From: Myxococcota bacterium
GTDB lineage: Bacteria > Myxococcota_A > UBA9160 > UBA6930
NCBI GenBank assembly: GCA_965223415.1
Contig: OZ245002.1
Span: 224,001 to 288,000, forward strand
Reading direction: 5' to 3'
DNA: 64,000 bases
This document shows, one piece after another, positions 48,020-56,055 of this stretch; the stretch's first letter is position 1, and every line of letters begins with the position of its first letter. Both the position numbers and the translations under genes were made by a program. The notes under the pieces were generated by a model that saw only the letters and a list, made by a program, of their open reading frames with translations, was not told the origin of the DNA and did not search any database.

Positions 48020-48736
48020 ATGTCTCCCGAGACCGTCCGCGCGCTGCGCGCCATCAACGAGCGATTCTACCGGACGCACGCCGCGCGCTTCGCGGCCAAG
48101 CGGACACGACCCTGGGAGGGGATGGAGCGCGTGCTCGAAGAGCTCCCGCGGCCGATCGACCGGGTGCTCGACGTGGGCTGTGGCCATGGGCGCTTCGCCG
48201 CCCTGCTTCACGCCGCCGGGGCGGAGCCGGCCTACCTGGGCGTGGATGCGTCCTCCGAGCTGCTCCGGCTGGCGATGGAGCGCGACGACCTGCCCGCGGC
48301 CTGCCGCTGGCTGCAGCTCGACGTCCTGGACGACCCGGACGCCCTGCCCCGCGGCCCCTTCGGCCTGGTGACGCTCTTCGGCGTGCTCCATCACGTGCCC
48401 GGCGAGGCCCGACGCCACGCCCTGCTCCGAGCCCTGGGCGAGCGCGTCGCCGCCGGCGGAACCCTCGCCCTGGCCTTCTGGCGCCGGGCGGGAGACCAGG
48501 TGAAGCGGCACCTCCCCTGGTCCCTCGCCGGGCTGCGGGAGGAGGACGTCGAGCCCGGCGATCGCCTGCTCCACTTCGACGGTGACGAGCGCCGGTTCCG
48601 CTACGCCCACTTCGCCGACGACGCCGAACTCGACCGCGTCGAATCGGCTGCCGGCCTGCCCCTGGCGCTGCGCTTCATCGCCGACGGCCAGGGCAATGTG
48701 GCCAACGCCTACTTCCTGTGGAGGCGCCGGGCGTGA
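48020..48736 (+). CDS. Class I SAM methyltransferase, Trm9/ALKBH8-MT-like
   Basis: FY...A..F...R.RPW, VLDVGCGHG, VLHHVP...R, LAFW, RYAH. Confidence 0.8.
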   Translation: MSPETVRALRAINERFYRTHAARFAAKRTRPWEGMERVLEELPRPIDRVLDVGCGHGRFAALLHAAGAEPAYLGVDASSELLRLAMERDDLPAACRWLQLDVLDDPDALPRGPFGLVTLFGVLHHVPGEARRHALLRALGERVAAGGTLALAFWRRAGDQVKRHLPWSLAGLREEDVEPGDRLLHFDGDERRFRYAHFADDAELDRVESAAGLPLALRFIADGQGNVANAYFLWRRRA

Positions 48737-48755
48737 TCCTGCGGATGCGATCGAC

Positions 48756-49490
48756 GTGACGGCGCCGGGGGCGATCCGCCGCCAGCTCGTGGGCCCGGAA
48801 GAGGTGGCCCTCGCGCTCCAGCGAGGCGAGCCGGTCCGGCTGCTGCTCGTCGCGGAGGAGACCGCGGACCCGCAGACACGCACCGTGGTGGAGCGCGCGC
48901 TCGAGCTCGGCATCCCCGTGCGTCCGACCAGCGAGCGCTCCCTGTGGCGGCTGCGTACCCGGGACGAGCCGGCCGAGGTGCTCGGGCTGGTGGGCCCGCC
49001 GCCGGACGCGAGCCGCGAGCAGGCCCTGGCCGGCGGCGGCTGTGCCTGGCTGCTGGTGGGCCTCGCCTATCCGGGCAACACGGGCTTCGCGATCCGCGCT
49101 GCCGAGGTGTCCGGCTCCGACGCGGTCTTCGTCGACGGCGCCCTGCTCCACGAAGGCCGCCGCGAGGCCCTGCGTGCGTCGATGCGCGCCGACCACTTCC
49201 TGCCGGTGTTCTGGGAGCCCGCGAAGGGCGCGATCGAAGCGGCCCGGGCCGCCGGCCGCCGCATCCTCGCCGTGGAGGACGTGGGCGATCGGGCGCCCTG
49301 GGAGGTCGACCTCACCGTGCCGCTCCTGCTGGTCGTCGGCGGCGAGCGCCACGGCATCCCGCGGGAGGTCCTGGACGCCTGCGACGCGGCGCTTCGCATC
49401 CCCATGTACGGCTTCATCCCGTCCTACAACCTGCAGGCCGCCATGGCGATGGTGGCCGGCGAGAGGCTGCGCCAGCTCGCGGCGGGCTGA
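48756..49490 (+). CDS. TrmH/SpoU family RNA 2'-O-methyltransferase
   Basis: PGN.G..IR, VGGERHGI, IPMYG..PSYN SPOUT motifs. Confidence 0.9.
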   Translation: MTAPGAIRRQLVGPEEVALALQRGEPVRLLLVAEETADPQTRTVVERALELGIPVRPTSERSLWRLRTRDEPAEVLGLVGPPPDASREQALAGGGCAWLLVGLAYPGNTGFAIRAAEVSGSDAVFVDGALLHEGRREALRASMRADHFLPVFWEPAKGAIEAARAAGRRILAVEDVGDRAPWEVDLTVPLLLVVGGERHGIPREVLDACDAALRIPMYGFIPSYNLQAAMAMVAGERLRQLAAG

Positions 49491-52177: not shown

Positions 52178-52981
52178 ATGCATCGCTTCGATCGGGATAC
52201 GGCCGTCGAAGCCCTGGGGGAGGGACGCTACGCCGCGCGCATCGACCGGGGCTGGTGGATCGTCCGCGGGCCGAACGGGGGCTACGTGGCCGCGCTGCTG
52301 GTCCAGGCCCTGAAGGCGGCGGTCTCGGACCCGGCCCGCGGCCTGCGCTCCCTCACCGTCCACTACCTGCGCCCGCCTGCCGAGGGCCCGGCCGAGATCC
52401 GCACGAGCGTCGAGCGGACCGGCCGGTCGCTCACCACCGTTAGCGGGCGCATGCTGCAGGAGGGCAAGGTGCAGGCCCTGGCGACAGCCGCCTTCTCGGC
52501 GCCGCGGGAGACCGCCGAGCTGCACCACGCCGAGATGCCGGACGTCGCGCCGCCGGAGGAGCTGCCGGCGCGCAACGCCAACCCGGCCGTCCCGATGCAC
52601 GGGCTGTTCGACGAGCGGCCGGCGCTCGGGGGCGGCGTCTGGGGCGAGGCGCCGGGGGGCCGGGCGCTCTCGGGCGGGTGGATCCGGCTCGCGGAGCCCC
52701 GCATCCTCGACGACGCACTCGTCGTGGCCTACGCGGACGCGTGGCCCCCCGCCCTCTTCGCCGCGGCCCTCGACCGGCCGGCCGGGGGCGTCCCCACCGT
52801 CGACCTGACGGTCCACGTCCGGGCCTCCCTGCCCGTGGCCTCGGCGCGACCGGAAGACCACGTGCTCGTCGTCTTCCGCACCCGGGAGGTGCGGGAGGGC
52901 TTCCTCGAAGAGGACGGCGAGATCTGGTCCCGGGACGGGATCCTCCTCGCCCAGTGCCGCCAGCTGGCGGTCATGGCCTAG
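52178..52981 (+). CDS. Thioesterase family protein (TesB-like double hotdog)
   Basis: W....GPNGGY, HYLRP, DAWPP, PTVDLTVH, EEDGEIW. Confidence 0.9.
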   Translation: MHRFDRDTAVEALGEGRYAARIDRGWWIVRGPNGGYVAALLVQALKAAVSDPARGLRSLTVHYLRPPAEGPAEIRTSVERTGRSLTTVSGRMLQEGKVQALATAAFSAPRETAELHHAEMPDVAPPEELPARNANPAVPMHGLFDERPALGGGVWGEAPGGRALSGGWIRLAEPRILDDALVVAYADAWPPALFAAALDRPAGGVPTVDLTVHVRASLPVASARPEDHVLVVFRTREVREGFLEEDGEIWSRDGILLAQCRQLAVMA

Positions 52982-53002
52982 AAGGGGTACACACGAGAGA
53001 CC

Positions 53003-53080
53003 ATGTCGACCGGCCGCAAGCCCTTCGCCTTCTTCTACTTCGGGTGGTTCTTTGGAACCTCCGGGGCGGAGGATCGCTGA
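53003..53080 (+). CDS. Aromatic-amino-acid-rich leader peptide (25 aa)
   Basis: MSTGRKPFAFFYFGWFFGTSGAEDR*: 6 Phe, 1 Tyr, 1 Trp within 10 codons, directly upstream of a terminator and DAHP synthase. Confidence 0.85.
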   Translation: MSTGRKPFAFFYFGWFFGTSGAEDR

Positions 53081-53113
53081 CGGCCTGACACGCCGAGCCG
53101 ACCTTCGAACACG

Positions 53114-53150
53114 AAGCCCCGAGAGACGCCTCTCGGGGCTTTCTCGTTTT
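53114..53150 (+). terminator. Attenuator intrinsic terminator
   Basis: 12-bp stem aagccccgagag-acgc-ctctcggggctt followed by tctcgtttt. Confidence 0.85.
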
Positions 53151-53177
53151 CACACGGCTTCCAGACAGGATGCAGCC

Positions 53178-54299
53178 ATGCAGGAACCGCTTCACGATCG
53201 AAACCTCGCGAGCCTCCACCGGCTCACCACCCCCGCCGCCCTGTGCGCGGCGATGCCGGTCCCCGAAGCCCTCGGCGCCCAGGTGCTTGCCGCCCGGGAC
53301 GCCGTGCGCGCCGTGCTCCACGGCCGCGACCGGGAGCGGCTCGTGGTGGTGGTCGGCCCGTGCTCGCTCCACGACCGGGAGGCGAGCCTCGCCTACGCGG
53401 AGCGTCTGCGCGGAGCCGCCGAGCGCTTCCCCGAGCTGCTGATCGTGATGCGGACCTACTTCGAGAAGCCGCGCACGACCGTGGGCTGGAAGGGGCTGAT
53501 CAACGACCCGCACCTCGACGGCAGCGGCGACATCGAGCACGGCCTGCGGGCGGCCCGCGGGCTGCTGCTCGAGATCGGCGCCCTCGGGCTGCCCTGTGCC
53601 AGCGAGGTGCTCGACCCGGTGACGCCCCAGTTCCTGGCGGACCTGCTCTCCTGGGTCGCGATCGGCGCCCGGACCACCGAGAGCCAGACCCACCGCGAGA
53701 TGGCCAGCGGCCTCTCCATGCCGGTCGGCTTCAAGAACGGCACGGAAGGCGATCTGCAGGTGGCCCTCGATGCGATGGTCTCGGCGAGCCATCCCCACCA
53801 TTTCCTGGGCATCGATCCGGACGGCGCCGTCGCCGTCGTCGCCACCCGCGGCAACCCGGACCACCACATCGTGCTGCGGGGCGGTCGCAGCGGGCCGAAC
53901 TTCGGCGCCGGCCACGTGGCCGAGGCGGGCCTGCGCCTCGCCGAGCTGGGCATCGCCCGCGGCGTGATGGTCGACTGCTCCCACGACAACTCGGGAAAGG
54001 ACCCGAGCCGTCAGGGCACCGTGTGCCGCGCGGTCCTCGCGCAGGTGCGCGCGGGCCAGAGTGGCCTGATGGGCGTGATGCTCGAGAGCCACCTCCACGA
54101 GGGCCGCCAGGATTGGCAGGCGAGCCCCCGCGCCTTCGGCGTCTCCATCACCGACGGCTGCATCGGCTGGGACGAGACCGAGGGCCTTCTCGAAGACGCC
54201 GCCGACGCGGTCCGCGGGGCCCGCCGACGCCCACGACCCGAGCGCCGCGTAAGAAGCGGGGCCGGAGTTAAGAATTCAGTTACCCCCTTCGGGGGGTAA
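53178..54299 (+). CDS. DAHP synthase, class I (AroF/G/H type)
   Basis: VGPCSLHD, MRTYFEKPRTTVGWKGLINDP, IGARTTESQTHRE, DCSH.NS, SITDGC. Confidence 0.97.
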   Translation: MQEPLHDRNLASLHRLTTPAALCAAMPVPEALGAQVLAARDAVRAVLHGRDRERLVVVVGPCSLHDREASLAYAERLRGAAERFPELLIVMRTYFEKPRTTVGWKGLINDPHLDGSGDIEHGLRAARGLLLEIGALGLPCASEVLDPVTPQFLADLLSWVAIGARTTESQTHREMASGLSMPVGFKNGTEGDLQVALDAMVSASHPHHFLGIDPDGAVAVVATRGNPDHHIVLRGGRSGPNFGAGHVAEAGLRLAELGIARGVMVDCSHDNSGKDPSRQGTVCRAVLAQVRAGQSGLMGVMLESHLHEGRQDWQASPRAFGVSITDGCIGWDETEGLLEDAADAVRGARRRPRPERRVRSGAGVKNSVTPFGG

Positions 54300-54325
54300 C
54301 TGAATTCTTAACTCCGGCCCCGCTT
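54254..54325. repeat. 72-bp perfect palindrome with TTCG loop (family B)
   Basis: 34-bp stem aagcggggccggagttaagaattcagttaccccc-ttcg-reverse complement; overlaps the 3' ends of two convergent genes. Confidence 0.92.
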
Positions 54326-55387
54326 TCCGAGCAGGTTGAGCTTGAAGCGGCGGATGACGTCGGGGGGGATGCGGTTGCCCTGCGTGTCCTCGAAGAAGAG
54401 CGCGTCCTTGGGGCACTGGACGATGCAGGCGCCGCAGCGGATGCAGCGATCGTCGTGGGCGAGCGCCACCTTGCGCTCCGGCCCGAGCTTCTCGAAGCAC
54501 GCCTCGGGACAGACCTCCCAGCAGCGGTAGACGCCCTCACAGCGCTCCGCGTCGAGGGTGATGCGGTGGCCACGGTCGTCGAAGTGGCTGCCGCCGGCGA
54601 TCGGCGTGCTGCCGTCGTAGTCGAAGGTGAGGAGTGCGGTCAGGCCGAGGGGCGCCAGGACGGCGGCGACGAGAGCGCCGGTGCCCCCGCCGGCGAGGAG
54701 CGTCCCGCCCACGGCGATGGCGAGACTCGCGGCGGCCAGGACGAGGCGCCGGGCGGAGCCGAGACGGTCGTAGAGGGCGAAGACCGCCACGGCCATCGCG
54801 ACGACGCCGGCGACGAGGGGAAGCGCCCAGGCCGGGCGAAGCGCCAGGGCCAGGCCCCCGAGCAGGACCGCGGTCGGGAACGCCCAGGCCGCGGCCATCT
54901 CGAGCCGCTCCCGGGCGCCGAAGCGGACCCTGCGCATGGCATCGGTCTTCTCGCCGGCGGCGAGATAGGCGGGCAGGTCCTCGGCCTGGACCGGACCGAA
55001 GGCGACCTGCCAGCGGCAGCGCCGGAACACGTCCAGGGCGAGGGCGCCGGTGGCGGCGAGCTGGGGCAGGATCACGCGCCGGTGGGTGACGCGCTCGGCG
55101 ATGCCGCAGGTCTTGAGCGCGGTCACGACCTGATGGGTGGAGAAGTGGCCGCCGGAGGCCGCGCACCAGACGTTGATGCCGCCGGAGGGAGCCACGACCA
55201 CCCAGGCGTCGTGGCTGGGCAGGGCGCGCATCACCCGCCGCACCGTCAGGTCGTAGTTGCCCGTGAGCACCACGGGGCTCGTCTCGTCCGGGTGCCCCAC
55301 CTGGCGCAGGCCGGGCTCGGTGGGCCACGGCACCAGGCGGAGGCCGGCCTGGGCCGCGTCGCGAAGCAGCTCTCCGACCCGGCTCAC
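54308..55387 (-). CDS. Fused HgcAB-like protein: corrinoid-binding (CdhD-like) domain + TM helices + ferredoxin
   Basis: PGL..VG.PDETSPVVLTGNYDLT, GINVWCAASGG, ILPQLAATG, FGPV.AEDLP; ~4 TM; CEGVYRCWEVCP and CIRCGACIVQCP. Confidence 0.88.
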   Translation of the reverse strand: MSRVGELLRDAAQAGLRLVPWPTEPGLRQVGHPDETSPVVLTGNYDLTVRRVMRALPSHDAWVVVAPSGGINVWCAASGGHFSTHQVVTALKTCGIAERVTHRRVILPQLAATGALALDVFRRCRWQVAFGPVQAEDLPAYLAAGEKTDAMRRVRFGARERLEMAAAWAFPTAVLLGGLALALRPAWALPLVAGVVAMAVAVFALYDRLGSARRLVLAAASLAIAVGGTLLAGGGTGALVAAVLAPLGLTALLTFDYDGSTPIAGGSHFDDRGHRITLDAERCEGVYRCWEVCPEACFEKLGPERKVALAHDDRCIRCGACIVQCPKDALFFEDTQGNRIPPDVIRRFKLNLLGKRGRS

Positions 55388-56055
55388 GGGGCGGGCTCCG
55401 CAACGTACAGGGCCAGCGTGCCCGCGAGCCAGTGCTCCTCGTCGCACGGGACGAAGCCAGCGGCCCGCAGCTCGCCCTCCAGATCCGCCAGCGGGCTCGA
55501 GACCGAGCCGACGAGCAGCCAGCCGAGCGCCGCCAGGGGGAGACGACCGAGCCGCTGCAGCACGCCGCGCAGTCCCGGCGCGCGCACCTCGTCCGCCGCA
55601 ACGACCCGCCCGCCCGGCGCCAGCCGCGCCACACACTCGCGCAGCACGTAGGCCCGCTCGCTCGTCGACATGTCGGAGAGGCAGAGGCTCAGGACCACCG
55701 CGTCGTAGCCGGCCGCAGGAAGGCGATCGATCTCGGCGGCGGTCTGTTCGAGCCACGTGACCTTCTCGCCCTCCGGCTCCGCAGCGCCGGCTCGGCCGAG
55801 GCGAGCCCCGGCCTGCTCGAGCATCTCCGGCGACGCGTCGAGCGCCGTGACACGCGCCCCGGCCCCGACCAGGCGCTCGGTCACCGCGCCGGTGCCGCAG
55901 CCGATCTCGAGCACGCGCGCCCGCGGGCGCTGCACGCTGGCGGCCGCCACCGCGTCGTGCAGGCGCGTGACCCGGCCCAGGGTGAGCGCGCGCATGCCCG
56001 CGTCGTAGCGCCCCGGCGTGGCCTCGAGCAGACGCATGAGCGCGAGCGAGCTCAC
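55384..56055 (-). CDS. Class I SAM methyltransferase (corrinoid-protein-associated type)
   Basis: VLEIGCGTG, LDAS..ML, L.PGG; GTGA overlaps at both ends. Confidence 0.88.
   Translation of the reverse strand: MSSLALMRLLEATPGRYDAGMRALTLGRVTRLHDAVAAASVQRPRARVLEIGCGTGAVTERLVGAGARVTALDASPEMLEQAGARLGRAGAAEPEGEKVTWLEQTAAEIDRLPAAGYDAVVLSLCLSDMSTSERAYVLRECVARLAPGGRVVAADEVRAPGLRGVLQRLGRLPLAALGWLLVGSVSSPLADLEGELRAAGFVPCDEEHWLAGTLALYVAEPAP

Follow-up and report, generated by a model that had tools for sequence, protein, structure and literature searches.

In thr and ilv attenuators, a single leader reads Thr and Ile, or Leu, Val, and Ile, at the entry step of a branched pathway. The leader examined here, which lies upstream of a DAHP synthase gene in the 64,000-nucleotide stretch of DNA that we analysed (the window), resembles them in carrying codons for several end products, and would be their aromatic counterpart. 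An ilvBNC leader of Corynebacterium glutamicum is mentioned in PMC4046766, and the same species carries aroR, a Phe-Tyr-Phe leader located before aroF (PMC4046766, PMC3890552). According to a review, Phe limitation raised transcription in the aroR system and Tyr availability had no effect (PMC11802643). The aroR-aroF pair resembles the window's locus in placing a short mixed-aromatic leader ORF before a DAHP synthase gene, with ribosome stalling raising transcription, the latter being only proposed for the window. Compared by description alone, the two differ in that the described aroR motif has no Trp, whereas the window's leader has eight control codons that together cover Phe, Tyr, and Trp.

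Further parallels are found in Escherichia coli, where pheL-pheA and trpL-trpEDCBA share with the window a control-codon leader ORF, competing antiterminator and terminator, and a U-rich tail (PMC3082878, PMC11802643), but each reads one amino acid and controls a terminal-branch operon. Control of shikimate entry in E. coli relies on isoenzymes and on the TyrR and TrpR repressors (PMC11802643). In Shewanella, a motif in the aroF 5′ UTR is a predicted attenuator listed as Tyr-tRNA sensing, by citation of E. coli work (PMC2659441, Table 3); it likewise precedes a DAHP synthase gene, but no three-amino-acid leader is described for it in the accessible text. An initial reading of the window, made from the sequence alone, had set the locus against pheL and trpL as leaders that each sense one amino acid, which holds for these single-amino-acid leaders but omits the published mixed Phe/Tyr leader before DAHP synthase. 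No Phe, Tyr, and Trp leader before a DAHP synthase gene was found in a literature search covering the main text of openly available papers, so that a prior prediction may exist, and the accessible parts of PMC12125101 and PMC3082878 contain no such precedent. Searches against Rfam, including the Phe_leader and Trp_leader families, yielded no match at gathering level in the window or in five related loci, and the window's six weak matches, all far from their gathering scores, include no leader family. The mechanism considered here is a textbook one, as in trpL, pheL, and aroR, and the Trp-containing DAHP synthase leader is its apparently new part.

Leader ORF, terminator, and antiterminator in the window

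The features of the locus are listed in Table 1. The sequence-only reading had described a 25-aa ORF with eight aromatic codons in a stretch of ten, and both this description and its translation were accurate: codons 8–17 read F-A-F-F-Y-F-G-W-F-F, with a single Tyr codon, a single Trp codon, and an aroR-like F11-Y12-F13 contained within them. Across the 26,240 short ORFs of the 5.83-Mb genome, this density was reached by this ORF alone (rank 1), and among the 52 short ORFs with at least five aromatic codons in ten, it was the only one followed by a terminator. The region 52700–53483 showed zero differences to one DNA sequencing run, which may be the source sample. The leader peptide was absent from a collection of 15 billion proteins and matched no family in Pfam or NCBIfam, and leaders of this kind can therefore correct annotation. 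Two other short ORFs recurred among the genome's aromatic-rich matches (10 and 4 rows; e.g., G000:C1 241471, 425891, 2411854, and 3071717), and are probably pieces of repeated elements, e.g., insertion sequences.

Table 1 Features of the DAHP synthase leader region (positions within the window)
Feature	Positions	Strand	Basis and remarks
Predicted weak sigma-70-type promoter	52964–52993	+	−35-like CTGGCG 52964–52969, 18-nt spacer, −10-like TACACA 52988–52993; predicted from relatives
Leader peptide ORF, 25 codons	53003–53080	+	ATG start; position and make-up conserved in relatives, sequence not
Cluster of control codons (10 codons, of which 6 Phe, 1 Tyr, and 1 Trp)	53024–53053	+	Sequence; ranked first of the genome's 26,240 short ORFs
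Predicted 1:2 hairpin (anti-antiterminator or pause)	53027–53077	+	−26.8 kcal/mol; without a ribosome masks the antiterminator strand
Antiterminator 5′ strand	53059–53072	+	Core CGGGGC 53062–53067, within leader ORF codons 19–24; fold model and covariation
Intrinsic terminator (predicted)	53113–53151	+	Hairpin 53113–53142, interrupted U-rich tail; 5′ arm GCCCCG (53116–53121) shared with antiterminator
Type I-alpha DAHP synthase gene (aroF/G/H family), regulated gene	53178–54299	+	TIGR00034, PRK12755, and PF00793 over cut-off

Downstream of the leader, the 12-bp terminator that had been read from the sequence was recovered as a hairpin of 12 Watson–Crick pairs (8 of them G-C) plus one G-U, closed by a 4-nt loop (−24.4 kcal/mol; one such hairpin observed vs. 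0.3 in shuffles). Its U-tract is interrupted in the window, and likewise in several relatives. The proposed pairing of CGGGGC with GCCCCG in the terminator 5′ arm was also borne out by complementarity, and the strand covaries with the terminator arm (see below). In the modelled antiterminator helix, pairing extends from this core to 53059–53061 with 53123–53125 (one bulge) and to 53068–53072 with 53102–53106. The leader region as a whole folded more stably than expected (z = −3.95; none of 200 shuffles equal), although part of this score comes from the terminator hairpin itself. Folding for alternative structures, as the sequence-only reading had proposed, returned a competing antiterminator and terminator as well as a hairpin between the first two strands.

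We modelled the switch by folding the transcript to 53126, i.e., before the 3′ arm of the terminator has been made, with a ribosome set at each codon, which is an equilibrium treatment of a kinetic process. With no ribosome, the 1:2 hairpin masked CGGGGC and the antiterminator probability was ~0, an effect modelled in just 14 of the 37 leaders identified below. With a ribosome covering 12 nt from its A-site codon, this probability was 0.31 at F8, 0.81–0.97 at F10–F17, and 0 from T19 on, although this “on” window is partly built into the model since any ribosome at least four codons upstream frees the strand. F17 left this “on” range under a 15-nt cover, whereas Y12 and W15 remained in it under all three covers tried.

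Conservation and covariation among relatives

DAHP synthase matches were detected in 56 of the 61 genomes searched, and a FastTree phylogeny of 164 rows was built from 30 loci of this genome search, 58 further regions, and 80 labelled loci. The window's enzyme was placed in a 49-row clade (support 99), whose labelled members carry the titles delta-proteobacterium, Myxococcales, Binatia, and Spirochaetaceae. The 39 clade loci considered here, window included, correspond to these 49 rows minus one duplicate and ten Nitrospirota, plus one partial same-genus locus. A strict test, which required a short upstream ORF with at least five aromatic codons in ten and then a terminator, was positive for 31 of these 39 loci, indicating that aromatic-rich upstream ORFs recur before orthologues, a check that the sequence-only reading had proposed. 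The same test was positive for none of the 52 loci of the sister clade (50 of them with at least 200 nt upstream), which contains the genome's second DAHP synthase; three partial regions were left out of both counts. The GCCCCG hairpin was found in 37 of the 39 clade loci, and was missing in L104 and L112.

Several loci departed from this pattern. The ten Nitrospirota DAHP synthases nested in the clade (L001, L003, L004, L006–L009, L012, L013, and L016) all lacked the leader-plus-terminator unit, possibly reflecting a transfer in which the attenuator was not carried along. In L087 (W-F only) and L100 (F-F-W), hairpin and antiterminator are intact with few control codons, and these leaders are possibly Trp-biased or decaying. 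Similar aromatic leaders were also observed outside the clade: three of these loci are Myxococcales/Polyangiaceae, one is Dehalococcoidia, and two are Phe/Tyr-only. The latter (L041 and L045, one of them a Desulfobacter record) have a Phe/Tyr-rich leader without Trp and then a terminator, ~100–200 nt upstream of the match, and by their codons represent a two-amino-acid form.

For the 37 loci with a hairpin, leaders were defined as ORFs running through the antiterminator and stopping before the terminator, which left one candidate in 30 loci and two or three in seven; in these seven, the leader was chosen by aromatic content, with L100 and L005 picked by hand, and the antiterminator anchors of L085 and L093 were also placed by hand. 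The antiterminator core is located 49–74 nt upstream of the terminator arm and, relative to the ORF, occupies each of the three frames (25, 10, and 2 leaders), so that it is conserved as RNA rather than as peptide. Each of its six core pairs holds in 34–37 of the 37 rows (alignment A1). In L091 and L015, one G-C pair is replaced by A-U on both sides, leaving the L091 terminator 3′ arm with a G-U wobble. Over ten antiterminator pairs, 20 cells changed on both sides vs. 8.6 in shuffles (0/500), with most core pairs nearly invariant and the flanking two-sided changes found in columns unpaired in most rows. The terminator was 94% paired across relatives, with two-sided changes in 8 of its 13 pairs. 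The locus therefore displays the components of a classical attenuator, i.e., a leader ORF, control codons for the end products, a terminator, and a mutually exclusive antiterminator in the path of the ribosome, the core of the latter showing few compensatory changes.

Transcription may start very close to these leaders. A consensus promoter scan of 52500–53500 found none, and the −10-like TACACA sits 9 nt before the leader ATG. However, allowing several candidate starts for each leader, 32 of the 37 leaders had a TA-starting hexamer 13–17 nt upstream of a start codon in frame, compared to 3.8% of 12,670 background positions. TTG was found at −35 distance in 23 of the 37, the window's own −35 being without it, and a Shine-Dalgarno-like word in only five. 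The promoter-like box in relatives thus suggests that the transcript is leaderless or nearly so.

Amino acids probably read by the leader

Since the Phe/Tyr/Trp-rich ORF overlaps the strand complementary to the terminator 5′ arm, the position of the ribosome would choose between termination and read-through. RNA polymerase would start just upstream of the leader ATG. When charged aromatic tRNAs are plentiful, the ribosome would pass codon 19 and cover CGGGGC, so that the terminator could form and transcription would stop near 53145–53150. When they are scarce, the ribosome would pause at codons 10–17, CGGGGC would remain available for pairing with GCCCCG, and transcription would continue into the gene; the second DAHP synthase, without such a leader, would provide a basal supply. 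The earlier proposal of a leader-peptide attenuator controlling DAHP synthase draws good support from the way the unit is conserved and covaries, from its frame-specific choice of codons, and from the fold model, and we consider this conserved element very probably a ribosome-mediated transcription attenuator.

Codon choice was evaluated over the 48 nt preceding the antiterminator in the 37 leaders. In frame, TTC/TTT occurred 134 times vs. once for TTG/TTA, TGG 47 times vs. twice for TGC/TGT, and TAC/TAT 51 times vs. 1 and 14 times out of frame, whereas only 3 of the 268 codons from the antiterminator onward were aromatic. Phe is likely the strongest signal, with six of the eight aromatic codons in the window, 134 of 232 overall, and a presence in all 37 leaders. 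This makes it quite possible, though not our favoured reading, that the same attenuator is effectively a Phe sensor, the lone Tyr and Trp codons being too few for a long enough stall. Such a reading has a precedent in C. glutamicum aroR, where Tyr had no effect (PMC11802643), and the Phe/Tyr-only leaders of L041 and L045 imply that some lineages can do without Trp. Against it, Trp is kept in 36 of the 37 leaders and Tyr in 35, well above label shuffles, and TGG is found in frame even where the frame of the antiterminator differs between leaders. All three amino acids co-occur in 34 of the 37 leaders vs. 20.7 expected when the labels of the same aromatic codons are shuffled, a contrast that is overstated because relatives share ancestry; in a thinned set of 22 rows, selected on the tree by eye, they co-occur in 19 vs. 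12.0 expected. This shuffling represents the best evidence on the question, and suggests that Phe, Tyr, and Trp are each retained on their own account. In addition, all three fall inside the modelled “on” window in 31 of the 37 leaders with a 12-nt cover and in 35 with a 9-nt cover. Against the three-way reading, the last aromatic codon lies 7–8 nt before the antiterminator in 24 of the 37 leaders, where a stalled ribosome could cover the antiterminator. We consider it somewhat more probable than otherwise that Tyr and Trp also contribute to the signal, and, judging from these codon patterns, regard the sensing of all three amino acids by the leader as about an even bet.

Because Phe, Tyr, and Trp codons all start with U, the leader could alternatively respond less to amino-acid supply than to how UNN codons are decoded (MiaA-type tRNA modification) or to ribosome speed in general, and loss of MiaA is described to work via trp leaders in Pseudomonas (PMC13434334). 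This is highly unlikely, however, given that the leaders avoid other UNN codons (Cys 2 and Leu UUA/UUG 1 vs. 232 aromatic; Ser TCN 26) and that the downstream gene matches the amino acids.

In arrest peptides of the TnaC type, stalling follows when the nascent peptide, still inside the ribosome tunnel, binds an aromatic amino acid in free form. The spacing between a Trp codon and the antiterminator does vary rather little, being 10 nt for 7 of the 10 leaders of one frame class, yet neither peptide sequence nor length is conserved, the same RNA motif is translated in three different frames in the peptide tail, and an upstream stall that frees the antiterminator would turn a biosynthetic gene on when its product is abundant, all of which makes this type of sensing very improbable here. 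Equally hard to credit is that the hairpin is an ordinary, constitutive terminator serving the upstream thioesterase gene, and the U-rich ORF a product of chance: this gene is on the same strand and ends at 52981, but a thioesterase gene is upstream in only 12 of the 37 loci (a homologue of window gene 48582–49490 in 5, neither in 20), this variation indicating that the unit belongs to, and travels with, the DAHP synthase gene, and a plain terminator needs neither an upstream copy of its own 3′ arm nor in-frame aromatic codons.

Control of shikimate entry in this genome

The best solved relatives of the regulated gene product are DAHP synthases (E 5e-115), and the genome encodes, besides a KDO8P synthase, two DAHP synthases of this type. 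In this genome (97% complete), no match was detected to class II DAHP synthase or TrpR, and none over cut-off to TyrR, for which 27 partial matches all missed the first 170 model positions. Elsewhere in the genome, trpE and a prephenate dehydratase gene are located ~9 kb apart; inspection by eye showed no terminator in the short gap before trpE and no leader at the second DAHP synthase. A strict genome scan for leader-plus-terminator units identified only the present one among 19 terminator-like sites, a scan too strict to show absence. These results would fit control concentrated at the shikimate entry step.

Two further observations were made next to the regulated gene. A 72-nt perfect palindrome (54254–54325; 34-bp arms, 4-nt loop) occupies its junction with a convergent gene, and both ORFs end within it; with 96 BLAST rows in the genome over both strands, it represents a REP-like repeat of which dozens of copies are dispersed in the genome. 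On the minus strand, 54308–55756 encodes a protein that exceeds the NCBIfam cut-off for HgcAB-like fusion proteins (NF043039) and falls below those for HgcA and HgcB; its start codon is probably downstream of the listed GTG.

In its fullest form, the attenuator reading would make this element a leaderless trivalent attenuator acting as an OR gate for Phe-, Tyr-, or Trp-tRNA shortage, in which single Tyr and Trp codons suffice, and which would replace TyrR and TrpR and mark the inducible one of two DAHP synthase copies across an uncultured order; we see this as equally likely to be right or wrong. To a specialist, the finding may appear plausible more than surprising, and an Rfam family can be built starting from the 37 aligned leaders. 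This lineage appears to run shikimate entry control with an RNA of ~150 nt and, if the three-way response is true, the aromatic case would join the multivalent attenuators and offer a compact sensor for aromatic amino acids that needs no protein.
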